Shown: positions 19,773-64,000 of the stretch, one piece after another
Layout of the letters: each line of letters starts with the position of its first letter
Numbering within the stretch: the first letter of the stretch is position 1
Assembly: GCF_037042905.1 (NCBI RefSeq)
Contig: NC_087245.1
Span: 11,596,001 to 11,660,000, forward strand
DNA: 64,000 nt
From: Lytechinus pictus
Lineage: Eukaryota
Direction of reading: 5' to 3'
Translations under genes and position numbers: made by a program
The notes under the pieces: generated by a model
The model's database searches: none
Told to the model about the DNA's origin: nothing
What the model saw: the letters and a program-made list of their open reading frames with translations, nothing else

Positions 19773-20352
19773 AGGAAAAGTCCACCCCAAAAAGTTGATT
19801 TGAATAAAAGGAGAAAAATTCAACAAGCATAACACTGATAATTTCATCAAAATCGGATGTAAAATAAGAAATTATGACATTTAAAGTTTTGCTTAATTTC
19901 ACAAAACAGTTATATGCACATCCTGGCTGGTATGCAAATGAGGAGACTATGATGTCATCCACTCACTATTTCTTTTGTATTTTATTATATGAAATATTCT
20001 AATTTTCTCCTCATTGTCAAGTTATACAACGATTAATTCCTCCCTGAACATGTGGAATTAGCATTGTTTAATACTATAGGGTTAAGTCAAGTTGGTCCTT
20101 ATTGTCAAATCTATAAAAAATGAAATATTGTATATATAATTCAAACAATAAAAAACAAAAGAAATAGTGAGTGATGGACATCATCGTCTGACTCACCTAG
20201 TTGTGCATCACTGTTTTGTGAAAAATAAGCGAAACTTTAAAAGGTTATAACTTTCTTATTTTACATCCGATTTTGATGAAATTTTCGGCACTATGCCAGT
20301 TTGATTTTTCTCTATTTATTCAAGTCAGCGTTTTCCTGGGGTGGACTTGACT
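19773..20352. mobile_element. TTAA-flanked long-TIR MITE (Kolobok-like), AGGAAAAGTCCACCCCA...TGGGGTGGACTTGACT
   Basis: TTAA on both sides (19769-72, 20353-56). About 200-bp inverted arms including atttcatcaaaatcggatgtaaaataagaaa. Confidence 0.85.
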
Positions 20353-23300: not shown

Positions 23301-24065
23301 CGCCAAATAATAATACAATTTTGTACGCGGAGCGCGCCGAAAATTGAAAAATCTTATATGTTTGATAGCGATTTAACGCCAAGTTTAATTGTTTTATATT
23401 GATTTCCAATGCTTTATTTATGCTCTATATACATAATTATATTTGCATTGCAGTTTTCAAGTTGTCTAATTATGTTTGCATTGTATATCATTAAAATATT
23501 TAAAGTTGTCAAAATTATTGCCATGGGGCGATCGATCCCTGCACACCCCCCCCCCCCGATCGACACGCCTCTCATAATTATGGATGCAGAACGGAGTCTA
23601 TCTTCCCTGCGCCCACCCATATGGAGCTGTTGATTGCATGAATAGACAATGTGATTAGCAAAACTGGATACAATATGATGCAGGGGATTTTTTTTTTTCG
23701 CTTGAGAAAAAATTAGGAGAAAATCAATATAGGCCTACTCTTCGCAAGTTCGGTGATGTTATTACTTAAAAAAGATATATCGAAATAATTTGATGAAAGA
23801 TATCGGATGTGGAATCATGCCAACACATGCCTTTCAACGTTATTTCTCATTCTCATTGTCTAACATAGCAGCACATATAAGTTTACCGATACACAGCACT
23901 GCATTAGCCGAGCACTTGTAACACAGTCCTGTTCTTCACCTCTGTTTGAAAAAAGGTGACCCTGATTTCATGTTATGTATACAATAATTATTTGCTATAT
24001 ATGCCTATATTCCCAGTGATATGTTCACTTACATGGTATCTGTCATGATCTCACACTGACATTAA

Positions 24066-24647
24066 AGGGATGGTCCGGGCTGAAAATATTTATATCTTAA
24101 TACATAGAGTAGAATTCACTGAGCAAAATTCCGAAAATTTCATCAAAATCGGATGACAAATAATAAAGTTATTGAAGTTTAAAATTTAGCAATATTTTGT
24201 GAAAACAGTCGTCATGAATATTCATTAGGTGGGCTGATGATGTCACATCTCCACTTTCCGTTTTCTTATGTTATTACATAAAATCATATCTTTTTCATTA
24301 TTTCATACTTGTGAGAATAATATGTCTCCCTTATAATGAAATAAGTTGCAGCAATAAATATCTAATGCACTATATCATTTGTCATTCCAATTTTTCTACT
24401 TCTTGGAGGAAAAAATTTGAATAAACCTCATTTCATATAATAACATACAAAAGACCAAGTGGAGATGTGACATCATCAGCCCACCTAATGAATATTCATG
24501 ACGACTGTTTTCCCCAAATATTGCTAAACTTTAAAATTCAATAACTTTGTTATTTGTTATCCGATTTTGATGAAATTTTTGGCATTTTGCTTAGTGAATT
24601 CTACTCTATTTATTAAGCTATAAATACTTTCAGCCCGGTCCATCCCT
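24066..24647. mobile_element. TTAA-flanked long-TIR MITE (Kolobok-like), AGGGATGGTCCGGGCTGAAA
   Basis: TTAA at 24062-65 and 24648-51; about 200-bp near-perfect inverted arms. Confidence 0.9.
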
Positions 24648-24651
24648 TTAA

Positions 24652-30660: not shown

Positions 30661-30703
30661 TCAGCTCCAATCACATCAAAATCTTCTCTATGTGCATAAT
30701 AAT

Positions 30704-30852
30704 TACGGAGCCTTTAAAGTGCCATCGACTTGGCGACTTGGCGAGATACTTTATCTTGCCATGTCGACATTTTTATAACCTTATTATGTCGACATGGCAA
30801 GATAAAGTATCTCGCCAAGTCGTCAAGTCGATGGCACTTTAAAGGCTCCGTA
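30704..30852. mobile_element. Near-perfect palindromic mini-MITE (TA-CGGAGCC...GGCTCCG-TA)
   Basis: 67-nt arms with one mismatch around an AT-rich loop of about 15 nt. Confidence 0.85.
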
Positions 30853-31042
30853 CATAATTATTATAGTCAATGTTGTTGGTATCTATTTGAGTTTCGACAC
30901 TCTATGATCTGGAATATGATCACTGGATCTTGATGTATGTGTGTGAAAGCGATCGGGTGCTTCCATGTTGCCACTTGTGATCAATTCACATCCATTGATG
31001 AGGTCATAGTTTGATTTGATTTGATTTTTTCCACTCTTGTTG

Positions 31043-31228: not shown

Positions 31229-33420
31229 CTAGTCAGGGCGATTGTGGATGAAATCACGGATCTTTCTGGACGTGGTGAGCCGATCTGAGAGATAAAATAT
31301 AGAAAAACACCACATCTACATGATGGATACGTTTTAGATCATGAAAATTCCATGAAGTTTGAACTCACGGTAGAGAACTCGAATCAGATAGGTATTATTA
31401 GGTATATACAAATTGTATAAATTTTATGTTACATGTGACAGTTGTGAAAGCTTATAATGTTTAACAAAACAGTAAATGAAATGCTAAAAATACAAGATAT
31501 ATACTGAACCAAGTAAATACCACCCGTTAATCGACAAGACCAAAGTGAACCTCGATACTTATGGACTTGTACCTACCTGCTGAACTATCTTATATGAGCT
31601 TCAGGTAATGTGGTATAGTACATCTGCTATCCATGTCAACCCCTTCTAATGTATAGATACACAGATGAACCAATATGATTCAAAAGGCGAGGGAATTGAG
31701 CCTCGTCACATCCGGGAATTGTCCCTTGACACTGGTATATTATGCTCATTCTGGAATATCATTCCGCTTCATTATTTATGTTATTGTCTTTGTCCAACTC
31801 GATTCCTGGTGATATAATCAAGGAATTGCCCTCTTTTTGATATCTCTAAAAAGTTTTAGTTAAATCTCAAATGATTCACATTCTCATGATAGTTTTTAAT
31901 TTCGACCGCCTTAAATTCGTTAATTTTTTTTCCACCGTTGTGCTATCCAGGCATCTGAACAGTAGTAGTATTTTTATAATGATGGCGCTCTTCAATCTCT
32001 CCTGATACACGCCGGTCACTTTCGAAAGTAGAACTTCTTAGAAAGGCCCATGTAACGTCGACCCATTTGGCGACGATTAGGTGAATTCATTTGTATCGAT
32101 TAGTCACCCATCAGCCTATTAAAAAGGTTATACAGGTTTCCATAATTTATTTATGTCTTCTGTTAAAAAAAAAGAAGCAAATCTATATCTCAACATAACT
32201 GCTCGTGGGAAAGGCCAAGCTAACCAAAACTGTTATTTACATGCATTAAATAATTCACGAATATAATAGTCTGGGTTGGTTAATAATTGCTTACATTTCG
32301 GGTTATTCAATTCCACTTGGTATTTTTTCACATTGTTCTTCTATCTCTTTATATTATAAACAAAATAAAATATGTGCAATAGTTATGTTCAACTTTCTCA
32401 CAGTAGCCTGATGAGTGATGTGTTGGATCTGAAACATAAGTTTTAATTTGTTGAATAAAGAATTCCTCTCTCCGAGAAAAACATTTTCAACATACCTTAT
32501 TAACATTATCATGAATAGCATAGGAAACCTACTATTTTCTGAAGCATCTGCTAGCCCGATCCCGGGGGGGGGGGCCACTTCCATTGACGAGTGGATACCA
32601 TGCGCGACCATGGGGTCTCGAAAAGCACCCTAAACACGTATTTTCCATTTTCTGAAAATGCACCCCTTAACAAGTATTGGAAACAAAACGATACTCTTGG
32701 CAAGTCTATTCCCTGAATTGAACCCCTAAACAAGTACAGCGATATTTCAATTATGCCACGGACGACGTCGGTCGTCGGTTTTACCTACATCATTGGGTTT
32801 AGTACAGCCCCAACTCACAACACCTCGCGCAAATTGTACTCTAAACACGAAGATCTAGTGTTGACTCTTGGGGCAAAAAGTACATCCCATATAAAACATT
32901 TTAGTCTAATTTTTTTTTATACCCTCGCAAATTTGACCCTAAACACGTAGCTTTCCTATCGAAAAATAGATACCCTTTTTTTCATTATTTTAGTGTTTTT
33001 ACACCCTTATTACGTTACGTACGTAACGTGCCCTATCTTGAAAAGGACATCCTTTTTACGTGTTTTTTGGGGTCGCGCATGGTATCCACTCGTCAATGTA
33101 AGTGGCCCCCCGGGAGCCCGATACATCAAACGTGAGCATAATTAACTTCTGGTGTTTGGTAATACAATTTCATAGTGCCTTTCCTTGCAGATCTATCAAC
33201 GATATCATTGCCGTGATATCACAGTGTGAATGAATCCACCCTAAATATAAACAAATATCTTTCAATCTTAGTTTGTGAATATTGGACAAAACTTCATTTT
33301 CATTCACAATATAGCTGAATGTGCTACGAGCCGAACATGTCAAAGATGGCGCTATACCCGAATCGGTACCCTTCACATAGGGACACTGACCAGTAAATGT
33401 TTACCCATTGGTTTTGTAAG
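31229..33420 (-). pseudogene. Possible decayed gene fragments with Ig-like character, interrupted by a MITE
   Basis: Minus-strand peptides RYQKEGNSLIISPG...(*)...IYQCQGTIPG (~31700-31845) and PSLTCSARSTFSY (~33310-33350). Donor CAG|gtaggt at 31577 and acceptor tctctcag| at 31284 leading to DRLTTSRKIRDFIHNRPD*. Several in-frame stops. Confidence 0.25.
32561..33114 (+). mobile_element. hAT-like MITE (CCCGGG(G)nCCACTT...AAGTGG(C)nGGG)
   Basis: About 45-bp TIRs; perfect 8-bp TSD agcccgat (32553-60, 33115-22); close reverse-complement copy at 56072-56651. Confidence 0.93.
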
Positions 33421-43969: not shown

Positions 43970-44656
43970 ATTGACCTTGAAGCCCTCGGGGTCAAATGTC
44001 ACAACTTTCAATAGGCCTACTTTTCTCTTGAAATTATAAAGGGACCGTACATGCTAAAATTAAACAACTATTTGCGTAACCTATAACGAAATAATGATGC
44101 AATACATCCGATTTTCTAATATTTCGCGGTCAATGATCTTTTAGGTTTTCAATGATCCTTTAGGTCATTGACCTCTAGAGGTCAAATCTGATTTCCTTCC
44201 TTCCTCATATCAAAATGAAGCTTATGGTAGGATACAACACTGATCTAGATGGTGAAAGTTTAATGCGTTAATCATAATTGTTAAATGTGTTATGATCAGA
44301 CCAGTGTTTGTACTACTATTCATGAAAAATTCTCACGATGGCAGCCATTTTTTATTTATGCAAATTAGACGTCTTTCCACCACTTAGATTTTTCTGGACT
44401 TTTATTATGTCTTTTGGGGGGCTTTGTGGAAATCCATTGTGCTGAAATAAAATAGAATGCAATTGTTACACTAAAGGCATATTTATAATAAACCGGTGAT
44501 GCTAAGTGTCAATATTCTAAGATTTTAAGGTCATTGGCATTTGCTATATAGCTCTCAAGGATGAAAGGTCAAAATTCATACACAAAACTCTCTCTCTAGA
44601 ATATCAGGATACCTTGAAAGTCAAAATTAACTAACCAGTTGACTGTTGACCTTTAA

Positions 44657-45244
44657 AGGAGAATGAAACTCTTGGAGCAAGTTAGCTTTTGTGAAAGCAG
44701 AAAAATCAAAGAATAAGATCAACAAAAGTTTGAGTAAAATAGGACTAGCAATAGAAGAGTTATGAGCATTTGAATGTCGAGATCACTAATGCTATGGAGA
44801 TCCTCCCATTGGCAATGCGACCAAGATCTATGATGTCACAGATGAACAACTCTCCCCTTTTGGACACTGAAAATATACCCCAAAACATCTCTTTTTGCTC
44901 ATTCTAATCATAAGACAAACGATTCATCAATGATATAATGTTGTGAAACCTCTGTATATTGTCCTCTCATAAAGAGAACACCTCACCTTGTGATAGACTC
45001 TATGATAAAAGTGAGAATATAAGTGAAATAAGTACTTAAGTAATGAGGGAGTTGTACGTGTGTGACATCACAGATCTTGGTCGCATTGCCAATTAAAGGA
45101 TCTACATGGCATTAGTGATCTCAATATTCAAATGCTCATAACTTTCTTATTATTCATTCAATCTTCCTCAAACTTTCAACAATATGTTTCTTTGATTTTT
45201 CTCTTTGATATGGATTCAGCTGGTTTCAAGGGTTTCATTCTCCT
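44657..45244. mobile_element. TTAA-flanked long-TIR MITE (Kolobok-like), AGGAGAATGAAAC...GTTTCATTCTCCT
   Basis: TTAA at 44653-56 and 45245-48; about 190-bp inverted arms. Confidence 0.9.
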
Positions 45245-45699
45245 TTAAGGTCTTTGAATGTTTTGGTCAGATCAGTCTTTTTACTACTAGGCCTACCAAT
45301 AATCATGAAAATTCTCACGATGTCAGTCATTTTATATTTAAGCAAATTAGACGTCTTTCCACCACTTACTAGACTTCCTAAGTTAGCTAATCGTTTGTGT
45401 TTTTTTTTCATTTAGGACACCCCCCCCCCCCCCACCGTGTAGAAAATCACAATCACTGCCCGATCGGAATACCGATCAATTGACTACCAGAAACCAATAT
45501 CCCACCAATAACACATGACCTTTCATTTTAAACAAAATTTGCAAGAGAATATTTCAATTCATAATATTGAATTTAAATGAAATATTTAAGTTAATTATTT
45601 TTTTAAACATCATGCTGAACAAAAATCTCATACTGTAGCATGTATATCATTGACATAGAAAATCTACCGGGGAAATCCTATCGGGTCTCAGTATCACTG

Positions 45700-46673: not shown

Positions 46674-46701
46674 GATTGTTTGCAGGCTATTGAAAGGCAA
46701 A

Positions 46702-46910
46702 ATGCCGAATAATCGAGCGACTGAGAGCCAGCCGTCGGGAACAACACCTTCAAATCCAGCTGCTCCAAGCTCATCGACTACGACGAGCAGTCGACCATCT
46801 TCGGCTGGCAGTGGTGGTCGACGAGGTGGGCCTTCACAGGAAAGAGGAAAACCGAATCATTCTATGGGCAAACCAGGTTCCAAGGCCCCACTTAGCTCAA
46901 GCGCCAAAAG
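46702..46910 (+). CDS. UBE2E: Ubiquitin-conjugating enzyme E2 E-class (UBE2E1/2/3, Drosophila UbcD2-like), first coding exon: Ser/Thr/Gly/Pro-rich N-terminal extension ending ...KAPLSSSAK(R)
   Basis: Acceptor tatctttttacag|G (exon starts 46674), ATG at 46702, donor AAAG|gtttgc at 46910/46911 (phase 2). It joins in frame to the 52010 exon to give [24 protein letters not shown], the start of the UBE2E UBC domain. Confidence 0.93.
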
Positions 46911-48154
46911 GTTTGCCAATAATTTCTCCCCTCTTGATACCGATTTTAAATGGTATTTACAGTCAGCATGCCGTGAACAATCGGAGGTGATTTTAGTGTG
47001 CGTACCGTGCCGTAGCACTATGCGATCAATAGCATTAATCAGAAAACAGCCATTGACATGATGTGTATGTAAAGTCCACTTCACCGCTCCACTTACTGGC
47101 GAGCTACCTAATTTGCATATAAGCTAAAAACTGTTATCTCTCGAAAATTAGACTCTGAATAACCAATATGTATATGTTTTTGGGTCCCATTCACTAATAT
47201 AGATCGCAATTTTCCATTTATATCAGGATATATGTTACCATAAGCGAGAAAATCGCAATTTTCAGATCAGAAGCTTATAACTCGCACACGCTGTGTACAG
47301 CATGCACGGTGCACGGCACAGCAAATTGAGCCCTCCTTGGTCGTGAGTCGGGGTTTGCGATTTTGTGTGTGGATTGAAATCTTGAAAGAGTGACTCACAC
47401 AGGGCGAGAGTGATGAACTAATCACAAGACGTTTCTTTTGTTCCATAGTTAATTCTATTTTGTACTCGGTTTGAAGTCTTTTATGTACTTTTGTATGGAC
47501 AAAGTTTACAAAACAAAATTTGTAATAGCCCCAAGCCTTTATACCTGGCCCCATGGCCATACATTACCCTTGTTCTTGTAGTATATATGTCGTATAGCGC
47601 ATGGCAGCCCAGCCTAACACATTGTAGTTTTGTACATTGTTGACATTGACAGGAGCAGATGGGGGCTTTGAGATAATGGTCTTAGCCCCCAAATCAAAAA
47701 CAGTTCTAACTTTGAACGGTTAGTAGGATCCATGGTTCCCTTCCAGACAATGTTTGCCTCCATTTTCCTAGAATTGCCTGTTAATAAAATAATACAATTT
47801 TTTATGTTGCATCAGATTTTTGCATTCGTTAAACTTACTTGAAGGGGCTGGTCAACTTGATTTATGTGAATTTTTATGTGAAAAAGTAATTTTCCATTCT
47901 TTTTTCACATTTACATACTTTCTTACAAATCTTAAGACCTGTGACTGTCTTGACTGCACTTTCTGTTTGCCTTTTTTTTTTTTTTTTCATATTCCGGTAA
48001 TAAGCAAAGCCATTAAAGATCCATAATGCTTTCTGAGACAACCACGTGTACATGTAGGATTATTAACAAATATCCATAGGTGTGGAACATTACATTTGAA
48101 ACCCTTGCCTAAGTCCTCTCAAGAAGAAGACTTAGGCCAGAAGTCTTCTTCTCA

Positions 48155-48391
48155 AATAAATTTTGCCCAATACGCCATGATCAAATTTTTTGGCTCATTT
48201 CACCACTGGTTTAACGAATGAAGAAATAGGCCTAGATCTTAACAATCCATCAAATTAAATGTCTTCTCAAGAAGAAGAGTTGTAATTTGATGGATTGTGA
48301 AGACCTAGGCCTACATGTATTTCTTCATTCTTTAAACCAGTGGTGAAATGAGCCAAAAAATTTGAACATGGCGTATTGGGCAAAATTTATT
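48155..48391. repeat. About 237-bp near-perfect palindrome in a UBE2E intron
   Basis: aataaattttgcccaatacgccatg...catggcgtattgggcaaaatttatt, centred on tcttctcaagaagaaga. Confidence 0.9.
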
Positions 48392-49205
48392 CTAAAAAGT
48401 TGCGAGCATGCAAACATTTAGACATTTATATATTGAAAAAAAAATCAAATTTTGATTGATTTTGATAAGATATTAAGAAAGTAATCTTACACATTGTACA
48501 TGCATTCAAGGCTCTACACTTATTTTTTTTCTTGGTGGTCCAATCAGTCCACCACAATCATCAATTTCATTTTTGGGTGGCCCGCGAAGCAAATTTGGCG
48601 GCCCTTAAACAATAGAAAACAATTTATCAAAACTTTAGTAGCCCAATCAGGTCACCAAGTGTGGGTTTTTACATAATTTTGTTGGCCCGACTCTCATTTT
48701 TAGTTGCCCCTGGTCACTGCTACAATGTAATGTGGAGCCCTTATGTATGTTGCCTTTACATGTATCTCTTTCCTTTTCTCCGTTTTCTTTGTCATGATTT
48801 TTTTTAGGGGGGGGGGGGAAGCACCCATCTGTATGCACATTAAAATACTTACATGTGCCACTTTCATACTGACAGCCGAAGTGGTGTAACTCCGGAGTCC
48901 AGACTGAGTTACTCACTTTGGGGGGCAATATGAAAATTCTAGGATTATTTCGATCCAGATTCAAAGCGGAGTACGGTACTCAACCCACTTTGAGAAGAGG
49001 GTTACAAACGGAGTTCGTCCGCAACGTCTATCTCGCGCGTAACTTCATTCGTTTCCGCATGTATGGCGTGAACTCAAAGGCCAATCAAAGGGCATCCAGA
49101 GCCATGACCTTGTATTAATTCAGGCCTTAATTTTCATTAGTTATTTGGTCCTCTATGTTATGATGGTGCATCAAATTCCAGGTTATGACATTGACATTGG
49201 TTTTA

Positions 49206-50667
49206 TTGTCTCACCTGCATAGCAGAGTGAGACTATAGGCGCCGCTTTTCCGACGACGGCGGCGGCGTCGTCAACACCAAATCTCAATCCAAGGTTAAGT
49301 TTTTGAAATGACAGCATAACTTAGAAAGTACATACATGTATGGACCTTATACTAAATAGGTTCATTAATTTATTGCGGATTGAAAGAATCGCTAGAGGGT
49401 ATTCATTTGTCTCGCAATCTATATAGACCTAGTTCATCAAACTTGGCCATAAGGTTAATCAAGTATTACTGAACATCCTGCCTGAGTTTCAGGTCACATG
49501 ACCAATTTCAAAGGTCATTTAGGGTCAATGAACTTAGACCATGTTCGGGGATCAACATCAAAATCTTAACCTAAGGTTAAGTTTTTGAAATGTCATCATA
49601 ACTTAGAATATACATGTATATGGACCTAGTTCATGAAACTTGGACATAAGGTTAATCAAGTATTACTGAACATCATGTTTGAGTTTCACATCACATGACC
49701 AAGGTCAAAGGTCATTTAGGGTCAGTGAACCTTGGCCAAATTGAGGGTATCTGTTGAATTACCATCATAACTTTGAATGTTTATGGATCTGATTCATAAA
49801 ACTCAGACATAAAAGTAATCAAGTATCACTTAACATCCTGTACAAGTTTCAGGTCACATGATTAAGGTCAAAGGTCATTTAGTGTCAATGAACTTTGGAC
49901 AAATTGGGGGTATTTGTTGAATTACCATCCAAACTTTGGAAGTTTATTGGTCTACATGTAGTTCATAAAACTTGGACATAAGAGTAATCAAGTATCACTG
50001 AACATCTTGTGCGCATTTCAGGTCACATGACCAAGGTCGAAGGTCATTTAAGGTCAATGAACTTTGGCCATGTTGGGGGGGGGGGTATTTGTTGAATTAC
50101 CATCACACATGTATCTCTGTAAGTGTATTGGTCTACATGTAGTTCATAAAACGTGGACATAAGAGTAACCAAGTATCACCAAGCATCTTGTGCGAGTTTC
50201 AGGTCACTTGACCAAGGTCAAAGTTCAATGGACTTTGGCCATGTTGGGGGTATTTGTTGAATTACCATCATAACTCTGTAAGTATATTGGTCTAGTTCAT
50301 AAAACTTGGACATAAGAGTCATCAAGTATCACTGAACATCTCATGTGAGTTTCAGGTCACATGACCAAAGTCAAAGGTCATTTAAGGTCAATGAAATTTT
50401 GCCATTTTAGATGTAATTATTAGATTGCTGTTATAACTTTCAAAGTTTACAGATATAGTGTATAAAATGTGGATATAGGGGTAATCAAGTATCACTGACA
50501 GGTTTTAGGTCACATGATCAAGGTCAAATGTCAATGAACGTAGTATTGTATCGTTATATGAATGGTGTTTTTTGTGAATAATGATTTTATAGTAGTTTTC
50601 AAAGTCAGCACTGCTGCTATATTGAATTGCGTGATGCAGGTGAGACCGCCAGAGGCATTCCACTTGT
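49206..50667 (+). mobile_element. Helentron-associated/DINE-1-like element with about 7 internal ~163-bp tandem repeats
   Basis: Subterminal IR gtctcacctgca (49208) / tgcaggtgagac (50635), a GGC-rich mini-satellite/hairpin near the 5' end, a 3' small hairpin region, T-rich flanks and no TSD. The aatcaagtat register recurs at 49457, 49654, 49817, 49986, 50167, 50320 and 50483. Confidence 0.75.
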
Positions 50668-50911
50668 TTTCAATCGGTCTACATGTACATGTACCTCCCA
50701 GTCTACATGTAAGTAATGGTCTACTGTCAAATTGATCAAATTTCCGTGGGGAGTGTGGTCTACGTTACTCTTGGTCTAGTGTAATTCTCATTTCTAGTCT
50801 AATGCTGAGTTGGTCTAATTTCCACTTTGTCTTCATGTACATGTACATGTATTTTTAGTTGTCAAATGAATACCTCATTCATAACCATTTTGAATAGTAC
50901 ACACATGTACA

Positions 50912-51578
50912 CAGAGGCGTCGATCCTGGGGGGCAGGGGGGGCGATCGCCCCACCAATGAAAATATTGGGGGGGCAAACATATCATTTTGCCCCCCCAAT
51001 AATTCCGGATATGCATTAAAAAAAAACAAGATTGTAATGTTCAGCAAGCGAGATTGAGATACACAACTCGTTCTTTATTTAAAATCGTGCTCAAAATGTC
51101 CGCTTTTCAGATTGGAATATAAAAATTTTCAGCTCGCGCTTCGCGCTCGCATCATTTCTGTAGCAAAAACCCATACTTTTCATGATTAAATTGGTGAATG
51201 TAAATGTCCCATTTTCAGTTCTAAGCCTCAAAAGAACTGCTTCAATTTGCAATCATCTTTTCTTGGATATATAGCTTGTTCTTTATCAAAAACGTCCAGT
51301 AAACTGTCATTTTTTCAGATCGAAATATCAAAATTTTCAGCTCGCGCTTCGCGCTCGCATCTATTCTCTTTTAGATACAAATCTTAATCATTGGTACCAA
51401 AAATGCTTAGAATATCAAGTTTTCAGCTCAGAATATAAAGAAATTTGAGCTCACTCTCGGCACTCGTACTATCTGTGTAGTGAGATACGTGTCTGTGTCT
51501 CATGAGTCATACATATATATAGATATATACATATATATATATATATATGTGTGTGTGTATATATAATATATATATATA

Positions 51579-51623
<45 letters not shown>

Positions 51624-51694
51624 TGTACGATCGAGCGCCTTTGGAACGTTAATGATTTCGCCCCCCCAATCTGAAAAATGGATCGACGCCCCTG
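50912..51694. mobile_element. hAT-like MITE (CAGAGGCGTCGATCC...GGATCGACGCCCCTG)
   Basis: Perfect 8-bp TSD catgtaca (50904-11, 51695-702); internal tttcagctcgcgcttcgcgctcgcat repeats (also at 20393-20520); TA/TG microsatellite at 51510-51610. Confidence 0.9.
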
Positions 51695-52009
51695 CATGTA
51701 CATGTGTAAGTGTTAAAAGATCAAGCGGTTATTAGATGTCATGGGTGAAGCTTAAGGCCCTAGCTAGAAATTCAGTAAAATTAATGGGGTATTGGGCATA
51801 TTAAAGTTGATGGATACCATGTGAGACAAGAGTCACAAGACCCACTGTTTCCCCAGCTAATAAAAACAAATTTCCTGAAATTCAGTGACATTCCATGGAA
51901 TCTTCAAGTTCTTTTTTTAATTAGATAATTTAATAGAGATTCAAATATTTTACACACTGTAATATTTGTCTTTCTTTCTTTCTCTTTTCCCATTTTCTAT
52001 TTCATGCAG

Positions 52010-52060
52010 GATCCAGAAGGAACTCGCAGAGATAACCCTCGATCCACCACCAAATTGCAG
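52010..52060 (+). CDS. UBE2E: UBE2E 51-nt internal exon encoding (R)[16 protein letters not shown](S)
   Basis: Long polypyrimidine tract + ttcatgcag|G ATC CAG AAG GAA CTC GCA GAG ATA ACC CTC GAT CCA CCA CCA AAT TGC AG|gtaagt, phase 2-2. The peptide is the canonical UBE2E helix-1 sequence. The next exon (expected SAGPKGDN...) was not found in the window. Confidence 0.96.
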
Positions 52061-53049
52061 GTAAGTGTTAATTTTTCTGGGTTTTTTACATATCTTTATG
52101 ACGATATGTGGCGTGCCAATAAATCCTCCGGAGCCGACTGGCTTCTGCAGAAGCGAAATAGCAGTATTTACTATTTTTGTCTCTAAAAGCATTGTTTTGG
52201 ATCAATTACTTTTGCAAATTTCAAATTAGTAATGGACAACAGAAGCCCTCGTTTTATCTGCATGCCGACACTGTGCGACACAACATAAAAATAATCATGA
52301 TAAAAAAGACATGCAATTTTATAATTACTTTAAAAAATGACTAATTTCACAATTTTTCTGACAATTTGCGCTATTTTAGAGCTCACTCTTTGTGAAAGAT
52401 GTTTAAATATGGCCATATTTTGTATAATAATTCATGTGTGTTCTTACTGGAATCTCAGATAATGTATCTTTTAGTATTACCGTACTCAAATTATGGTTAT
52501 TTCTGTTCGCTGATACATGTACCTGTTAAGCCTACAAAATGTACTAAATTTAATGCATCATGAAGAACTGACCAAACCAAATTAGAATCTAATTTTATCT
52601 TGTTACTCCGAGAAACTGTCGTCAAATAATGTTTCTATTGTTGAATCACCTGTTTAAAACACACTATCTTGTCCTTGTCTCGTCACATGGGGTTAAAGCA
52701 GGCTGGTACTATTAAAACAGGTATATTCCTAATTTCCTATCCTGCCTAAGACATAGGTCTGCGTTAATAGCGGTACTCAATATCGCAAATTGCATTGTTC
52801 GTATACCGCGCACAAACTTTTCTACTTTGTTTGATGTTTGTTGTTTTTATTGCTGATATTATTCTGAAAGTTCCTGATTTTTTGAGAAATTTATTGGAGT
52901 ATGAAAAATAAGTATGAAGAATATGTCATTTCTTATCAAATGTTAACAGCCAATCATAAAATAGCAATTTGATGATGTCATCAGTCTTTGAAAATACTTT
53001 TTTTTAATTCAACAGTGAGATTACCATTAGAACCAAATTTAACCTTTAA

Positions 53050-53585
53050 AGTGATCATTTCACTTTGTTCTGATTTAAAAAATTTCATTTGGTTCTTGAA
53101 AATGGGCTAAATATTTATAGGCTTTTAGTTTAGTGTAGAAACACCATTCCAAAAGTTTCAAAGTATAATATCTACAGGAACAATGTTAAAACCTTGGAGA
53201 TGTAAACCAAAGTTTAAAAATAATTGGGGGTTGGTTTCAATGACTATGTACATGTATGTATACAGCAAATCTGTGCACCACAACTCAAGATGAACACAGC
53301 ATGACCAACATGTGTACAGTGCAGCTAATAATAGCCTGTGTATAAGAGACACACACAGCAGAAGGCAGTCAACATAGCCAATAGAATTTTTGATTGGAGA
53401 AAACTGGTCATAAGCTGACCCTGTCTACTAGACGGTTCTCAAAATAAATTGCTACTTGTACCTAAATTAGAGTTTTTCATCCTATAGGTTTTTAAGGACA
53501 TATACAGGCACTCATAAAAATACACATGTTTCATCTCAGTTTGAGAATTGTTTAAATCAGCTGCTTACAAAGTGAAACGATCCCT
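53050..53585. mobile_element. TTAA-flanked MITE (AGTGATCATTTCACTTTG...CAAAGTGAAACGATCCCT)
   Basis: TTAA at 53046-49 and 53586-89; degenerate long TIRs. Confidence 0.75.
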
Positions 53586-53690
53586 TTAATACAAAAGTTT
53601 GAGTAATGGGTTTTGGCATACTTTCGATCCATTCTTGTCCACTCTGTGGCGACGTCGTCAACTTCAATCTTAACCAAGGTTAATTTTTTT

Positions 53691-54174
53691 TTGGTCTCAC
53701 CTGTATACATGTAGCAGAACCAGATTACATGTACAGGTGCCGTTTTTCCAACTGCGGTGGCATTGAAGACATTGAGCACTAAGAGCGCTATTACCATTGC
53801 TATAAGAGACTTTGTCGTAATCTGCATAATATAAAAACTGTAAATGGACCTAGTTCATGAAAATTTCGACATTCAGTATAAAGGGTAATAAAGTATCACT
53901 TAACACCCTGCCTGAGAAACCCGGTCAGCTAAGGACAGTGCTGTTCAATCAGAGATAAGCACTCATGAATGGCTACAGCTGGGGGGGGGGGGGGGGTTAG
54001 GCAGAAAATTTTGCGCATGTGTGTGTGTGTGTCACTGTGTGAAAAGGGGGAAAAAATAGTATGGGGTTAGAAAATCTTGCGTAAAAAGTGTATTTTTTCA
54101 GAGTCAGCACTGCTGCTAAATTGAATTGCATAATGCAGGCAACTAGGCAAGACTGCCAGAGGCATTCCACATGT
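53691..54174 (+). mobile_element. Short decayed copy of the 49206 Helentron/DINE-like family
   Basis: Shares the 5' gtctcacctg...gcaga...gccg.tttttcc, ggacctagttcatgaa, and the 3' agtcagcactgctgcta...gccagaggcattccac. Confidence 0.75.
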
Positions 54175-54254
54175 AGCCAGTAGTAGGGTCCATGTTCAAG
54201 CCATTGGCTAGAGTGCTATCTCCAGGCTGTATAATTTGAACAGATACAGTAATA

Positions 54255-54816
54255 CCGTATTTACACGCTACACCAACTTGCGGGGCAGACCTGCCTCGTG
54301 GAGAAGTTTTGTCCCGTGGATTATTCAGCTTGCAGATCAGACTTGGCTAGCCGTGGGAGACAAACAGACAGATCAGTGGATACATTTTCGCAGACACCCA
54401 CAGTGGTCTGTCAGAATATGCATGCCCACGAAATGAAGAACTGAAAGTAAAGCTGGTAGCTTGTTATCTGTTTCATCTATTTTTGCTCGACACATTTTGG
54501 GAATATTACTAAAAAAGTATGTCTATCATCATGCATGCAGCTCACATGAACGGACGAGATTTACGTCATGAAACGTACTCTTAATCTTGAAGTTGCTCAT
54601 CCTGGGCAGACTCGACTTTGTGTTAACACAGTGAAAAATTGCCATTTCTGCTCCGGCTTGCGGGTGTGATCCTAGTATTTTGGCGGAGCAAAAAAAGCAA
54701 GTCAGCTACAGCTCGTGAAGCAAGGTAATCGCATTTACATGCAGATAAAAAAAGGCGAGTCAGACTCACCTGGCGGGTTAGACCCAAGAGCCGGGGTAGG
54801 TGTAACGTTAACACGG
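54255..54816. mobile_element. Tc1/mariner-superfamily MITE with CCGT termini (Tc2/pogo-like)
   Basis: TA|CCGTATTTACACGCTACACC...GGTGTAACGTTAACACGG|TA. Confidence 0.65.
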
Positions 54817-55980
54817 TATAAATTTAGACGGTGAAAAGGGTATCAAAATGAATATAAATATCAAGAAGTGTATGTACATGTAGGTCTTTATTTCAACAGC
54901 CTTGATATGAGTAGGCCTTTAGGTCTACATGTAATACATACATGTGTATACCATATCATGAAAATGGAATGGTTGAGGCATTATTACATGACAGATACAT
55001 GTACCTGAAATTGGGTACGCTGACATTGAAAGATAGAGGCAGACCCTACTTGTAGTTTACTTGTTGAGGGTCTACAATGTATTTTGAAAGTCCAACACCC
55101 TGATTGTAGACATATATCACAACTCATGTTGATTGATGTGCATATTCATGAACATGTAATGGATTCAAGGCAACTCTCCTGCTTGAATTACATTGACAAT
55201 TCAAAATTTGTCTGTACATGCATGGGAGTACTTGTACTGTATGCCTACAAGACTAAACATTTGAATTAAAAAAAAAACCTTTAAATTTTTACAGTGACAA
55301 GAAAAGATGATGTGACTTCAAATTTGTAGGACCTACATGTACATGTACATGTTGTGTTTGAATAAATATGAATCACTTTGGTACACTATAGAAATCAGTA
55401 TATTATTATTACCGGTATTATTTATTACAAGCAGAATTTGAGAATACAATGTGAGTAATAAAAGGTGTCTGTATTCATGGCACATGAGCTCCTTCCCATA
55501 TTCTCAATGCTTGTTTTTTGTATCTTCAATACAGTTGTGCAATATTTACACTTGAAATGTCACTACAAAACTGATACTGTGGCCTATGTTTGAGGGTAAA
55601 GACATTCTGCCAGAGGCCGAACAATTTGAGACTGTGTAATATGAAAATTGCGTACTGTGGAAATGAAAAGGGAGCTGACAAGATACAGTACGTGTATGCT
55701 TATGTACAGTGTGCTGTATTGTCACTGAGTTGCCGAATGGTCTTTCACTGATTCCAGCTTAGAAAACTGATTCCTTGATTAGAACTTCAAAGCAACAAGT
55801 ACATGTATTGCCAAAAAACATGGTTCAGAATATTATAGTTCATTCATGAGTGACAAATTTTGCCATTGTTGTATGTACGTGTACATGTAGATATTTACAA
55901 GCATGAAGAAACCACTAGATAGAATTCATACATGGTACATGAGATGCACATGTCAGCTTGTAAAGAGGAAATCACACATG

Positions 55981-57075
55981 AGGTGTGTTCAATGTCAGTT
56001 TCCACATTTAAACACAACATGAATCATGATTGAAAATTTAATTACAAAACACAATATACATGTAATGAGAACCCGGGGGGGCCACTTACATTGACGAGTA
56101 GATACCATGCGCGACCAAAAAAACATGTAAAAAGGATGTCTTTTTCAAGATAGGGCACGTTACGTACGTAACGTAATAAGGGTGTCAAAAACACTAAAAT
56201 AATGAAAAAAGGGTAGTTTTATCTATTTTTCGATAGGAAAGCTACGTGTTTAGGGTCAAATTTGCGAGGGTATAAAAAAATTAAGACTAAAATGTTTTAT
56301 AAACGATGTACTTTTTGCCCCAAGAGTCAACACTACGTGTTTAGAGTACAATTTGCCCGAGGTGTTGTGATGTGGGGCTGTACTAAACCCAATGATGTAG
56401 GTAAAACCGACGACCGACGTCATCCGTGGCATAACAATTGAAATATCGCTGTACTTGTTTAGGGATTCAATTCAGGGAATACTTGCCAAGAGTTTCGTTT
56501 TGTTTCCAATACTTGTTAAGGGTAGAGTTTCACACGCCAGCACTTGTTAAGGGGTGCATTTTCAGAATATGGAAAATCCGTGTTTAGGGTGCTTTTCGAG
56601 ACCCCAAGGTCGCGCATGGTATCCACTCGTCAATGGAAGTGGCCCCCCGGGAATGAGAAATAAAGGGTGTGTTCAATGTCCTCCATTCCCGGTTGTAAAA
56701 GTAAACATCTTTCCAATCACGTTTGGAGGAAAATTTAAGCTTTGAAAAAGATGCGCTTGTAAATGCTATCAGCTCACATTTTACAACCTTCAGCATAGTG
56801 AATGCATCATTGAACACGATTGAGTTTTGAAATGTCTTTTAATTTGCTCTCGCAATACCAGCAGGTGCCAGAATTGACCTTTCTTGTGATGGGACAAACT
56901 GTGCACTAAAGCTGCCAGCTAATGATTGCGGGAAATTTAAAGATGATCGACAAATAGCTTTTTGTTTTCAACACTTAACAGTACACTGCTGATCGTGTTT
57001 GTGTTCTGTTGTTTGTAATTGAGTTTTCAATTATGATTCAGGTTGCTGTTTAAATTTGAAAATTGACATTATACT
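55981..57075 (+). mobile_element. Harbinger-like MITE (same family as 63436-63916), split by a nested MITE
   Basis: Colinear with 63436-63916 on both sides of 56072-56651. Confidence 0.8.
56072..56651 (-). mobile_element. hAT-like MITE, same family as 32561-33114
   Basis: Perfect 8-bp TSD aatgagaa (56064-71, 56652-59). Confidence 0.93.
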
Positions 57076-57295
57076 CATCATTTGTTGGCTGTTCATTATG
57101 TTTCAGAAATTCCCCACAAAATTGTAATCAGGCACACATCTGCCATGCCCATGAGCCCTGAGCACATAGGGGAACTGCTACAAAAATAAAATTTCAATGT
57201 CGAATGAAGGGATTTACAACAGTAAGAGAATGACATTCTTCATATTTGCACTAGGAGATACATGTAGATGTTCATGTATTGTAACGCTTACATGT

Positions 57296-57788
57296 ATATG
57301 CTTTTCACACATGATTTGCTTAACCCCATACTATCCTTAACCCCGGACTAGGCGTATCCTTAACCCCATACTATCTTTGTTAGGTTTCACACTGTCTTTC
57401 TTAACCCCATACTATTTGCTTAGCTGGGGTTAATGCTTTAACCTTGGACTATCGTACAGCTCATGAATATTGATGACCTTGCAACACAGCATGATTAATG
57501 TGCAATTTCGACTTCTGTGATTGGCTAATGCATAGCCCCACTTTTCCTTAGCCCGGTTTCGTTTCACACTGCATCTCTTAGCACCGCAATAAGCTGGCTA
57601 ACCCTGCTTTTTTTCAGGGCCAGATAGTACCATACTATTTACCATGCTAGCCCACTTTGCTATAAAAACGTAGTGTGAAAACGAAGTGGGCTAAGCTTAA
57701 CTCCGGGAAGTTGGTGGGGATAAGACCCCCCCTTAGCCCCACCTATTTCCCGTGGTGAAGGAAAATAAGTGCAGTGTGAAAAGCATAT
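57296..57788. mobile_element. MITE with 15-bp perfect TIR (ATATGCTTTTCACAC) and CTTAACCCC repeats
   Basis: TIR seen at both ends. Confidence 0.75.
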
Positions 57789-60198
57789 TTCACTTCTATT
57801 ATACACATGTATGTACACCTGTCTCTATCTTTGAAAGTACGTATTCAAGAAATATCTGAAAACTCTGCCATTGAATCAACAATCTTTCCGTTCCAAATCA
57901 ATGTGTAGAGCGCTGAGAAACAATTATCTTTGTGAGAGCGTGATATAAATGAACATTATGCCAAAATCCACCCAACAGATTTCCCTTCGCAAATTGGCAA
58001 TATACATACAGTATACTATACACATATAGCTACTCTCTGAGGTGACAGAATCGGCATGAAGTCGGTGGCATCATGCTCCTACATGTACATGTACATTTAG
58101 GATAGATATATGAGAATGTGGAGAAGTTGCTGCATGAAACAATTGTTGCATGTTTTCTGGTCTTGTCGTACATGTACATGTGTCAATCCTCGACACTCAG
58201 CCTTATTGCTTAGTTTAGTGGACATAGAATCAGGATTTGGAGCAGAGATAATATAAATGATTGAATCATGCACCCAGTGCATGATCATCTTTTAATCATC
58301 TTTCTGCTGACAGTGGTTCTGCCCTGTTCGGCGGAATATTGACTCTAAAAGTTACTATCATGTTTTCAATTTTGTGGTGAGACTTTCATAAATGTTTATT
58401 CAGAGATAATATTTTTAGACAAACCCAGGAATTGCAAAGAGCTGAGTGGTTGCATGGGGGGGGGGGGGCATGCTTTTGAACTTAGATATGAAAATTGTAT
58501 TATTTTTTGTTGTATTCTATGGAACAATCAGCATTTTGGGAAAATGAAACAACAGTGCTTTGAAACAGATTTCTTCTATTTTAATCAGCATCATGCTTTG
58601 GTTAGGTTAGAGATTTGAGTATAAGAAGGGGGGGGGGGCAAGGCAAATTTTAATGTAAACATTCCCGGTAGGATGCTGAAATGTCACAAACAGCCTATTT
58701 TCCTCATGGACATTCAACATGCATGAACATGGAGATGGTTCGAGTAGAATATATGTCAAGGGACATGCCTTTTACTGCTGATAGAGACAAGAATTGCCAT
58801 GGACAATTGATGTTCCTCTACTCCCTCCTGGAGTATATTATGCCTCATATTAATTGATTGTAGTGACGAATTAGTTATTTAAGATAATCAAACATGACCA
58901 ACAGATGGCATGATGATGATAGGGAGGTGGTTACTTTTGTTTTTGGCTGTTATCATTATCTTGAAAGACCATTTCTTATCTACAATGTTGCATACCGGTA
59001 TATATTGATAGCTTGTTTTTAAATGTCTTTAGTAGACATGTGTGCTGCTCCCTCTTTCCACCCCATTAGGAAAAATAGCTTATTACAATGATTAATTCAT
59101 TTATTCAGGATGAAAATAGAGCTTGGAAGATCACAAGGCCATATCTTGCCAGCTCAATTTCACAATGTGGCAATGTTTGTACACACATCATACACAGATA
59201 TTTAAGCCATGCCCCCAAAGTGAATGCACACTGTATGTACTAGCAGTCTGTGTGTAATAGTAGTGTGTGTCGCTGAACAGGGTATTGTTGACATACCTCA
59301 CAGGCAGACTGTCATTAGAGTATTTCCAGAGGGAGTAAGTTCAATAAGCATAGCGGAACATAAACCCAGAAGCATCACCTGTTAGGTAGTAATTTGTATT
59401 GTTTAATTCTGCTAAGCACCTTTTTGTCTGCATGCATGTTCGCAGAGAAGGACATCATGCTTTATTAGCACTTGTAATTTAATGATGGGATTTATCTATC
59501 AAACTTGCTTATGCTTGGCGATAAAGACATATTTATGTGCCTCTTTCGATATTGAAAGCCCCTGTTGCTGGTTGCATTGAAGTCTAAAATAGTGAAGAAG
59601 TTATATCATTTTTTGCTAGATGATAGATATTAAAGGCTGTTTTGTGGGAAAACGGTGGGAATCTGAAACAAGATCACTTTGGTTATTTAATTTTATCTTG
59701 ATGTAGTGACATCATATTTAGAGAATTTAGATTCTAGCCTTTGAATTAATGATTAGACATACATTGTAGGACAGTCTAGTAATATTAAAAAAAAATCATA
59801 TATCTGCAGTACTTGGTAAATCTGCATTTCAACAACCATGGCTATATTATTAGTGAAACCTGCATGTATAAATAAAAAACACAGTAAATTGCAAATTTGT
59901 CTATTGCCAACTCGTCCACTCATCACATGGCCTACCTTCATTTGGTTTTAATGCCATTCCGTCCAATATTTGGACTAACAACCATTTGGTCCAATCATCA
60001 CTTCATCAATCAATGGTTCGTCTATGACCATTTCGTGTCATAACCAGTTGGTCTGATGTCCATTTTATTTTTATCTATGTCGTCCAATTAGACCAAGTGG
60101 TATATGGACTAAATAACAATTGGACCAACTGGTTACTAGACAAAATGGTGAGTTAATGAAAAGGCAGTTAGACCATGTAGATATTGGACAAAGTGATG

Positions 60199-60753
60199 CC
60201 CGCGGAGGGCACTCAGTATATAATGCATAGTGGGTATGTGCCGCGGAGGGGACCCCCATTTTTACACTCAAATTTCCGTTCCAAGGCATAGCATTTTTGT
60301 CTTATTGAGAAAAAGAACAAAGAAAGCCGCTTCAAAGCATAGCATTTTCTTCTTATCGAGAAAAAAAGAAGAAAGAAATCCGCTCCAAAGCTTCGCATAT
60401 TTTCCGTTACGCCGTTCCGGCCGTATTGATCTGCTACAATGAGCCGCAGTTTGGTGAAAAGCAGCCGCAGAGCGCTGTCCAACCATTGCATCTGCGCTAG
60501 CGCACCCGGCGCCCGTGCCGCCGGGCTATAGCTGCATGCACGTATGTCCGTTCCATAGGGATGAATACGCAATCACACGCAGGCGACCCGTTCCAAAGAC
60601 CCCCGTTTTCACAAACATTTGTCGTTCCGAAGCCCGTTCCGAGGACCCTCCTTTTTACAATAAGCCCGCTCCAAGGCCCCCGTTTTTTGTCTCGCCCGCT
60701 GCACATACCCACTACTTTTTTGGTCGAGTGCCCCCCCCCCCCCCCCCCCCGGG
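60199..60753. mobile_element. hAT-like MITE (CCCG...GGGCACTC / GAGTG(C)nGGG) nested in an older foldback element (~59915-60830)
   Basis: Perfect 8-bp TSD aagtgatg (60191-98, 60754-61). Host arms aatgccattccgtccaat / attggacggattggcatt. Confidence 0.88.
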
Positions 60754-60922
60754 AAGTGATGTTAGACCAAGTGATAGACAAGTTGATAATTGGACGGATT
60801 GGCATTTATAGACCAATTGAAAATGGACTGTATAAACGAGAAAAGTATAAAGCTTAAAATCTTGTGGTGCTGATGTTTCTATGTTTCAGCCCAGATTATA
60901 TCAGCATTTTAAAACATGTTTA

Positions 60923-61451
60923 CATGTGTGATGGGGGGACCTAAAGCTACGCACTTTGTTTTCAAACAATAAAAACTATCCCAATTTTAATATTTCAACA
61001 AATATCTTTCACTAATTTGTGGCAAACATTCTAAAGATCATTAACCAAGAAGAAAATATCGCAAAACTCACTAATACGAAAATCCCGCCGTGTTTTCCGA
61101 ACACCTCTTGATTTCGCCACCCGATGAAGAAGGGGTCCTAAAGCTACGCACTCGATTTATCATGCAAAAAAATAGTATTTCCTGTGCCTCAATTTCTAAA
61201 ATATATTCATATTATTATAGGAAAAAATGAAATTTAAGCGAATATAACTCCAAAATTCCAAACAGTTGTTGGTTTCTCTGCATTTAGAGATTTACTGCAG
61301 CCTCTGTAGAAAAAAATTGAATAGGAATCGTTCGTCACTCTGCAGTCACAGTTCCACACACAGAGTGCGCATTTGCCATAAAAACTGTACGCGCGATGAG
61401 TGGTGCGTAGCTTTAGGACCCGCGCAGCTTTAGGACCCCCTGCCATACATG
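60923..61451. mobile_element. MITE with GGGG(A/T)CCTAAAGCTACGCAC terminal and internal repeats
   Basis: Motif at 60935 and 61133, inverted at ~61404-61440. Termini CATGT.TG / CATACATG. Confidence 0.7.
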
Positions 61452-61887
61452 AAGTTAAAAAAATGGTTGCATCCTTTGTTATTTTCATTTACATGTATAC
61501 ATCAATTCAAATGCTGATTGTTAACTTGCAAAAAAAAAGAAGTTTTTGATGGTTGTTACTCCAGAATCGTGGTTTTGTGGGAAGTTTAAAGAAGACCACG
61601 ATCTAACACATTCAAATGATGTTACATGGTACATGCTTCTGGTGTGTGAATGAAGGTCTGTGTGCATGTACGGTCACATGGTTCTAATGGCCATCAAAAT
61701 ACATGTGATTAATAAGTACTCTCGTTAATACTGCTCTTAGGGGATAATCGCTGACCATGAAGTCCAGCAATAGCTGATGTCCATTTATCATCACCATGGT
61801 TGAAATTCTATAGCTACACATGCATGTCAAGTATTAACAAAATATTTGACAATACTGTGCAATAATTTTGGGAGAACAGAAAATGAA

Positions 61888-62035
61888 GAGGTGCCGTGGT
61901 CTAAGGTGCCTGGCTATACATGTACATGGAAAGTCTGGGGTTCGATCCCTGGCCACGTTACCTACAGTATGCTCTTTTATCATGCATTCAAATAAATGAA
62001 AATGCTTTACACATTATTGGTCACTAGGTGTGCAC
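61888..62035 (+). mobile_element. Decayed tRNA-derived SINE head
   Basis: gccgtggtctaagg...ggggttcgatccctggccacg. Confidence 0.5.
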
Positions 62036-62186
62036 TTGTTTCTTTTTTCTTTTTTTTTTCAAAGAAAAAAAAATGGACTGAGCTTTAATAATCCCTTACT
62101 ATAGATGGGGCTTACTTGCCATTTAGGTCGCTTTTCGCGTGTGAGAAAGGATATGAGTCTTGGTGATAATTCGCTAATATTCTTTA

Positions 62187-62829
62187 AGTTAGGGTTACAC
62201 CGGAACAGAATCAGTGGAGAATCCATCTAAATATTCGTATTCGGGTGGTTTCGGGAGTATTCTGTTCTCCCGCCACGAATGCAATTAAATTTGGGAGGGA
62301 TTCGGGAACATACCCAGAGGAATTCAGCTAGTTTTTAAGTGTTCAAAACGAGCCGAATAACCTCTAAAATACATGTACTCTGAAAGTGACCACAACGAAT
62401 TTCATTTGGGTCACATACAGCATGTATATTCGGATGACAGTCGGTTGGATTAGGGGAGGAATTTGGAGTATTCTGGGCAGACTCTGACCTATCCGTATCA
62501 TTCCGGGCCATATTCGTTCCGATTCCGGTCAATATTCGGCTGTAATCAGAGCAATTGGGTCATATTGGGATGATTCTTGGCACCTTCAAGTTGGCTTGAT
62601 TCTTGCCAATAGTTGGGTGGTATTTGGCTTTAATCGGGATGGCTAATATCGTTTCGGCGATTCTGTGCTGAATTGGGACCTTTTCTGGATCCATTTGCTC
62701 TATTCGGGGAGCTCCCCGAGTCAGAGAAGGAAAGGTTCCGAAATCAGCAAATCCATCCGAGTCTGGCCATATTCGGGCAGAATCGGTCCGAATTTATTCA
62801 GGAGAATTCAGTTTTGGTGTAACCCAACT
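62187..62829. mobile_element. MITE with AGTT(A)GGGTTACACC TIRs and TTAA-like flanks
   Basis: agttagggttacaccggaacagaatc / gaattcagttttggtgtaacccaact-ttaa. Confidence 0.7.
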
Positions 62830-62900
62830 TTAAGTGTGAAAATGACAGTGGGACTTAATGCATAGTTTTTATTAGATCGGTTTATGATATTGGTAACATA

Positions 62901-63402
62901 CAGTGCGTCCCAGAAAAAAGGAAACCGGGATTCCCATGTACAAATGTATTTTTCCTTCAAAAGCAAATGAATTAATTCAGTTATTCCTCTTTATTTTGAT
63001 GCCCATTAATATGAGACAAACACTTCAAGCATTAATTAGCGAGACGAGTTTGAAATTTTAATGTCAAAACCAGGTTGCGCAGAAAAATTTGACATGATTG
63101 ACCCTGCTTATTCGACGATTAGCTCATTAGCATTTCTTTTGTATTCTTAAGATTCTCTCACTGATCCCTGAAATGAAAGTGGAATCAGATTCTCGCGTGA
63201 GTTTCTGTGCAATTCGTTTCTAATATACCTCAATATTTATTGTTTGTAATCTGCCATACATGAACGACTTGCTTAGCTGTTGGTTTCATATCCGAGATTA
63301 GATTCCACCCTTGCCATGAGTATTAAATTCATAGGAATAACATATTTAATAATTGTGAAACCTATCTCTGAAAACAGGTTTCCTATTTTGTGGGATGCAC
63401 TG
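62901..63402. mobile_element. Tc1/mariner-type MITE with CAGTG termini and TA TSD
   Basis: TA|CAGTGCGTCCCAGAAAAAAGGAAACC...GGTTTCCTATTTTGTGGGATGCACTG|TA. Confidence 0.88.
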
Positions 63403-63435
63403 TACATGTAGTAGCAAGCTGACAATCTTGACTCA

Positions 63436-63916
63436 GGGTGTGTGCAATGTTGATTTTCAAATTTAAATAGCAACATGAATCATGATTGAAAAGGCAATTA
63501 CAAAACGTGGATATGAGAAACAAAGGATGTGTTCCATGTCCCCCATTCCTGGTAGTAAAAGTAAAATCATTCAGATCGTGATTCAGAGGAAAATTTAAAA
63601 CGGTGAAAAGGATGCATTTGGGAATGAGATCAGCTCTGATTTCAGCATCGTGAATGCAACACTGAGCACGAATAAGTTTTGAAACGTCTCTCTTGCAATG
63701 GAAGCCTACACAAGCACGTGTCAGAATTGATGGGTCAAACTGCGCCGTAAGCTGCGTAACGAGAGTCGGAAATTTATAGACAATCGACGTATAATCAGCT
63801 TTATATTTTCGACACTGAACGGTGCATCCCTGATGGTGTTTGTGTTCCTTGTGTTTTCAAATTCAATCATGATTCACGATTCTGTTTAAATTTGAAAATC
63901 AACATTGAACAGACCC
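63436..63916 (+). mobile_element. PIF/Harbinger-like MITE
   Basis: About 55-bp TIRs GGGTGTGTGCAATGTTGATTTTCAAATTTAAA... / ...TTTAAATTTGAAAATCAACATTGAACAGACCC; flanks TCA/TAA. Confidence 0.85.
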
Positions 63917-64000
63917 TAAAATGGCTATAGATGCTATACATGCAAATGTGTTAAACACTGTTTGTCTGCAGTGATGTTTGCACAATAGCATAAACACACA

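Follow-up and report, generated by a model that had tools for sequence, protein, structure and literature searches.

Six-letter gains at TA sites in the introns of a UBE2E-type gene of Lytechinus pictus as likely excision scars of a Tc1/mariner-type element

We analyzed a window of 64,000 nucleotides from Lytechinus pictus (contig NC_087245.1, 11,596,001 to 11,660,000; positions below count from its first letter) in which the word TACATGTA, that is CATG between two TA dinucleotides, accumulates in the introns of a predicted ubiquitin-conjugating enzyme gene, UBE2E. The copies represent short gains at TA sites, mostly of six letters, and we consider it likely that they are excision scars of a Tc1/mariner-type element with CA...TG ends. 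This reading builds on four observations: the excess of the word, its gain polarity at five sites, the constancy of the inserted letters and a resident TA-flanked CA...TG element. A preliminary description of this DNA had noted repeats differing by an added CATGTA and had proposed Tc1/mariner excision as their origin. That proposal is supported here; as far as they could be looked for, neither a motif-bearing ancestral form, nor a lack of CATGTA among 6-bp indels, nor descent from CpG-containing words was found. As we saw no site where one allele holds the element and another the scar, we infer the origin and the source.

The word occurs 38 times in the window, compared to a mean of 1.59 and a maximum of 6 in 100 dinucleotide shuffles (approximately 20-fold excess), and it is the commonest of all 256 palindromic 8-mers. 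This confirms that the excess, and with it the observation first made in the preliminary description, is real. Only 5 copies lie in positions 1-47000 and 33 in 47001-64000. If the four exact doubles (50680, 50838, 55334 and 58080) are collapsed, 34 clusters result, 5 upstream and 29 downstream, leading to densities of 0.11 and 1.7 per kb and a step of about 16-fold. The best change point of the density was located at 48048 and was matched by none of 5000 random placements. The first downstream copy sits 1.1 kb into the intron after the predicted first coding exon, and the promoter region between 44 and 48 kb is free of the word. The 17 kb of intron contain approximately 1,270 TA sites, 29 of which bear clusters. 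The enrichment is limited to TA flanks, with 33 copies of TACATGTA compared to at most 4 for each of the 15 other palindromic CATG words.

The region upstream of the gene contains several long inverted-repeat elements (24062-24651, 19778-20348, 30696-30861, 14555-16354 and 44648-45252) that are devoid of the word and offer a possible control set for a gene-body effect. The upstream copy at position 504 is likewise part of a repeat. Its paralogs at 44.7 and 45.1 kb have fewer letters at this place, but the divergence of the alignment prevents a clean +6 call.

Whether the long or the short form is the older one can be judged from four public runs (X22, X1, X9 and X5) aligned to positions 48030-50330. 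Because the tandem element in this region is very high-copy, the aligned reads sample other copies of its family. The gap figures are the best 12 of 28, and one must keep in mind that reads from any tandem unit can align to any unit. Within this element, five gains are missing in most family reads. At 50134 the six letters are omitted in 1779 out of 2058 X22 reads and in 83-99% of the summed contig depth of the other runs (28347/28485 in X1, 147492/177832 in X9, 189033/224898 in X5), and at 50106, which holds the decayed form CACATGTA, in 1089 out of 1310 X22 reads. At 49953 the gap is split into 2+1+3 letters (9204 out of 10235 X1 depth; 462-694 of approximately 2800 X22 reads), and a further 1338 X22 reads are clipped at 49959, their consensus being without CATG. 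Loose ends at 49330 (eight letters fewer) and 49616 (six fewer) run on without a CATG word. The net gain at TA, with the TA duplicated, therefore amounts to six letters at 50134, 50106, 49953 and 49611 and to eight at 49333. All five out of five sites with family reads are gains, and since most family reads lack the extra letters, deletions or CpG decay do not explain them; the short form is ancestral, as the preliminary description presupposed. The sites 49953 and 50134 are homologous positions of neighboring units, where a single event may have been duplicated. Three further gain sites come from paralog comparison alone, and 48312, in a hairpin with almost no reads, is unpolarised.

In an unbiased self-BLAST of the window, 5 out of 9 distinct 6-bp indels were CATG-type by hand count (48312, 49611, 49953, 50106 and 50134); the other four were TAATAA, AAGATC, GGGGGG and TTGAGT. 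The individual paralog differences reported previously could all be reproduced, with one coordinate off by two. The two hairpin arms differ by CATGTA, and the second element head, though a diverged copy, carries both of its +6 differences relative to the first. For the tandem units, CATGTA is present at 49953 and 50134 and absent at the homologous TA, the bare site being 50293 and not 50291. The tandem units, one of which had been reported as lengthened from 163 to 169 bp, measure 163, 169, 181 and 153 bp, where the 181-bp unit consists of 163 bp plus a run of six G, CACATG and CATGTA. Additions to the earlier account are the decayed form at 50106, the gains at 49611 and 49333, and the density step at the gene start.

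These length differences bear on the idea that the word arises by CpG decay in a methylated gene body, with ACGCGT-like words turning into ACATGT by substitution. The ratio of observed to expected CpG does drop: with the same repeat mask it is 0.80 upstream and 0.60 in the gene, and in hand-masked unique intron DNA 0.40. CATG outside the exact motif is also denser in the gene, with 8.3 per kb compared to 5.1 upstream. The lower CpG content fits gene-body methylation, as far as base composition can indicate it, and such methylation marks constantly transcribed genes in many invertebrates (PMC8857917). Substitution, however, adds no length, while five sites are length gains compared to family reads; the precursors are nearly absent (TACGCGTA 0, TACGTGTA 2, TACACGTA 0), and decay would not single out TA flanks. 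We therefore give this explanation hardly any credence. Deamination could help to preserve the CATG core and cannot create it here.

The inserted CATG is constant in all 29 clusters despite unlike flanks, so it is not templated from neighboring letters. From a CATG that stands unchanged between two TAs one would expect a source element whose ends are CA...TG. Tc1/mariner transposases insert at TA and cut 2-3 nt inside the 5' ends (PMC2170065), and a 2-nt cut is known for Tc1 and ISY100 (PMC4490562, PMC2170065). By this chemistry, the element would insert at TA and duplicate it; at its exit, the transposase would cut two letters inside each 5' end, leaving a 3' CA overhang on each flank. Two CA overhangs are unable to pair with each other; if both were retained during end joining in the germline, TA-CA-TG-TA would result. 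The added letters thus correspond to element-end letters and are independent of the flank, and the element at 62901-63402 has such ends. The term "programmed +6 process" in the preliminary description is too strong; the gain is more aptly described as a by-product of break repair.

The element at 62901-63402 is a convincing resident CA...TG element and the only such case in the window. The TA that flanks it on the right also serves as the first TA of the TACATGTA at 63403. At its left edge 302 reads of run X21 diverge at 62898, and many dispersed copies are indicated by a summed X9 depth of 55,365 compared to approximately 50 in unique bins, a depth that is not a copy number. With TA-flanked terminal inverted repeats and dispersed copies it fits a Tc1/mariner miniature inverted-repeat transposable element (MITE). 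CATG words adjoin this and two other intact elements, 50912-51694 and 60929-61445. The first of these two, presumably a hAT-like element, has its target duplication CATGTACA within a CATG chain, so the chain came first and was partly duplicated by the 783-bp insertion. For the 517-bp element, the insertion site may have been the middle TA of a double scar.

A different class of TA-targeting element with CA ends, or some constant-sequence insertion process that does not use the Tc1/mariner overhang route, could be considered instead, given that the culprit element was not caught, that the product is more uniform than that of worm germline repair, and that the Tc1 consensus is missing from the flanks. 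Transposases that form hairpins, however, leave palindromes that vary with the flank. The constant insert is unlike these, and a fitting Tc1/mariner-type element is present; we regard this alternative as having a small chance of being right. The Tc1 target consensus CAYATATRTG (PMC9635669) is specific to Tc1 and not family-wide. Its absence from the flanks lowers the case for Tc1 itself, not for an element that works like Tc1. A bias for T at +3 and G at +4 of the flanks was weakened after removal of chain-like neighbors and was not retained.

Chains of the word suggest yet another origin, in which a few seeds of whatever origin grow by slippage into a hexamer microsatellite, (TACATG)n, and single copies are what is left of arrays that have collapsed or decayed. 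Four exact doubles exist, 17 out of 56 half-sites lie within one letter of CATG (compared to 5.4% of the upstream TA half-sites), and 10 decayed CACATGTA/TACATGTG forms occur in the gene. Slippage copies neighbors, but the bare counterparts of 50134, 49953 and 48312 hold no CATG; at the bare sites 50293, 48227 and 49220 the new unit could not have been copied from an adjacent one, and the longest perfect run is approximately three units. As the source of the word we find slippage improbable. It may explain how chains extend, not how the word first appears. For the excision scars we propose, more tentatively, that they may be good targets for new insertions, so that repeat visits would produce chains. 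This attraction has modest support.

The sequence-based assignment of the dense stretch is that it forms the body (introns) of the UBE2E gene. A Pfam search of seven window frames gave no match, and no motif of a later UBE2E exon was found up to 64000. The sharp density step at the gene start would also be in line with selected binding sites of a protein, an Irx-type homeodomain or MYB factor, that marks broadly expressed gene bodies; TACATGTA has been described as the site that Irx prefers and, in Phytophthora, as a motif of promoters (PMC3520976, PMC11134190). The words, however, arise by insertion into copies of transposons and into hairpin arms, do not occur in the promoter region and decay freely, and selection may affect their retention but supplies no origin. 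We hold this explanation to be very unlikely. For the excision scars, the bias towards the gene body might most readily result if insertion favored the transcribed, probably methylated gene body, and full elements were lost later while neutral scars were kept. Going further, one may speculate about a self-reinforcing cycle in which an element inserts at TA, excises and leaves an attracting TACATGTA, with a preference for methylated housekeeping gene bodies. This would exert a directional +6 pressure, affecting approximately 2% of intronic TA sites, and scar density would, from sequence alone, be a readout of germline chromatin and past excision rate; we put this forward tentatively and with considerable doubt. 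The features are collected in Table 1.

Table 1. Features of the gene, the motif field and the repeat elements in the window.
Feature	Position	Strand	Remarks
TACATGTA field	48049..63410	none	33 copies in 29 clusters
Upstream non-coding exon, predicted only	ends near 46095
First coding exon, UBE2E-type gene, predicted	46674..46910	+	ATG at 46702; splice signals; without Pfam match alone
UBE2E exon	52010..52060	+	17/17 residues identical to UBE2E2 chain 9lul_a, E 6.8e-07
Long hairpin	48155..48391	none	right arm with CATGTA at 48312-48319, left arm with bare TA at 48227; almost no family reads
Very high-copy non-autonomous element	49208..50668	+	12-bp inverted repeat 49208-49219 / 50635-50646; 163-bp tandem core
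Diverged second head, same family as 49208..50668	53693..53760	+	+6 at 53706 and 53726
783-bp element	50912..51694	none	CAG...CTG ends; 8-bp target duplication
517-bp inverted-repeat element	60929..61445	none	TACATGTG left, TACATGAA right; ends uncertain
TA-flanked 502-bp element	62901..63402	none	CAGTG...CACTG ends; terminal inverted repeats of 26 bp, identical at 23/26 positions; without transposase

The very high-copy element at 49208-50668, which we take to be DINE-1/Helentron-like, belongs to a family that is abundant in the RNA run X22 and strongly one-stranded there (depth of approximately 5000 compared to 30), the reads stemming from other copies. A CCCGGGG-ended inverted-repeat element occurs in two copies that are 88% alike (56073-56651 and 32568-33115); the former lies between two AATGAGAA within an older repeat, a paralog of which is found at 63435-63917. 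The word TAGGCCTA is over-represented too, with 8 copies in the window, 6 of them before 46000, and shows no step at the gene start; TACCGGTA has two copies in the gene. GGTC, GGCC, GACC or AGTC, a motif set chosen post hoc, adjoins 8 out of 29 scar clusters compared to 34 out of 1178 other TA sites. TAGGCCTA and the GG-CC words may be the scars of another family, one whose ends are GG...CC.

Metagenome contigs were scanned with the end pattern of the element at 62901-63402, which gave 55 loci. One of them, L015, encodes an intact 365-residue DD41D transposase that matches the transposases of Mos1 (E 3e-06) and Sleeping Beauty (E 0.006) as well as DUF4817. Its terminal repeat is identical to the tip of the window element in 18 out of 19 letters and is followed by TA; in the apparently intact DD41D element L015:1-1638 this repeat measures at least 170 bp, and the identity of its first 123 compared letters suggests recent activity. 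Judged by the end letters, the match places the end type of the window element in the Tc1/mariner superfamily. A tblastn comparison of the L015 transposase with the window gave no match. A candidate partner end, matched loosely with up to 6 mismatches in 22, was present in 15 of the loci examined, and TA lies beyond it in 10 of these. The 55 loci contain 32 motifs compared to 4.5 expected, which we do not count as support because some loci are duplicates and a matched control is lacking. In two locus copies that are 90% alike (L021:660-675 and L035:410-424), TACAGTA and TACATGTA, respectively, directly precede the same CAGTG element end; the difference could reflect either two different scars or a 1-bp deletion.

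Several points weigh against the excision origin. No pair of alleles with element and scar was seen among the best 12 of 430 gaps of the first alignment, which was dominated by high-copy repeats and showed no CATGTA gap among these 12, or among the best 12 of 28 of the second. Nothing ties the element at 62901-63402 or its family to the scars, and one CA...TG element compares with 29 clusters. Its link to DD41D consists of approximately 19 end letters, L015 having a long repeat and no internal DNA match to it, and a DD41D cut stagger was not found in the accessible part of PMC5490172. The spectrum is oddly uniform in comparison with the 26 products of worm germline repair, and the +4 forms TACATA/TATGTA show no excess (20 in 17 kb compared to 44 in 47 kb). 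The TRTG preference of Tc1 is not seen in the flanks, with TATG in 2 and TGTG in 0 out of 56 half-sites. Clusters with exact neighbors are in only modest excess, 6 out of 29, where the rate within the gene itself predicts 2.2 (p=0.02). Among one-mismatch forms in 47001-64000, flank transitions (17; 10 of the CACATGTA and 7 of the TACATGCA type) exceed core transitions (5; 3 and 2), a skew that is not obviously explained by plain decay. According to PMC3520976, moreover, the worm scar is rare and the abundant Phytophthora motif a binding site. Finally, contigs of the same species (X2, which may not be independent of the source of the window) span eight motif sites (52514, 53249, 53706, 53726, 54875, 54926, 54996 and 62370) with 0-2 gap letters; as all eight cleanly spanned sites are shared, these are not visibly young. 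Two other X2 contigs, over the region of 58080, 58169, 61490 and 61917, carry 32 and 15 gap letters. Apart from these points, two contigs of a relative, organism B, stop aligning exactly at a motif TA (48763 and 61918), which is suggestive of, not proof for, absence of the motif there.

Excisions normally leave no countable trace. If the excision origin holds, the 29 clusters record far more visits than the surviving elements show; excision rates, germline repair choice and insertion-site preference would become measurable from genome sequence alone, and the 16-fold step would tie transposon traffic to gene-body chromatin. We found no report of the density, uniformity, placement or gene-start step of such scars in the open-access literature, and nothing relevant on the motif as a genomic footprint field or marine microsatellite. 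The scar itself is textbook knowledge from Tc1.

In Caenorhabditis elegans, Tc1 excision produces non-complementary 2-nt 3' overhangs (van Schendel et al. 2015, PMC4490562). TACATGTA, which that work explains by these overhangs, is class L of 26 footprint classes and, in an assay with frame selection, made up 24 out of 103 revertants from the wild-type germline; natural breaks are reported there to be mostly repaired error-free. The worm footprint and the window word are identical in sequence, +6 at TA. The former, however, is an experimental product at one locus, whereas the latter is a standing feature of approximately 2 per kb that comprises almost a single class and sets in abruptly at the gene start. 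The footprints of Sleeping Beauty (PMC7827188) are alike in combining a TA duplication with element-end letters retained after end joining. They differ in arising from 3-nt overhangs, and the matching forms TACAGTA/TACTGTA occur 5 times in the last 17 kb compared to 33 copies of TACATGTA. With the rosa and LTIR DD41D elements and MITEs (PMC5490172), L015 shares the DD41D spacing, the DUF4817 helix-turn-helix and the long terminal repeat, whereas the window element is short, with short repeats and no coding sequence. The same word is promoter motif-1 of Phytophthora, abundant genome-wide (PMC3520976). It is read there as a transcription-factor site in promoters, whereas the motif of the window is intronic, avoids the promoter and was inserted.

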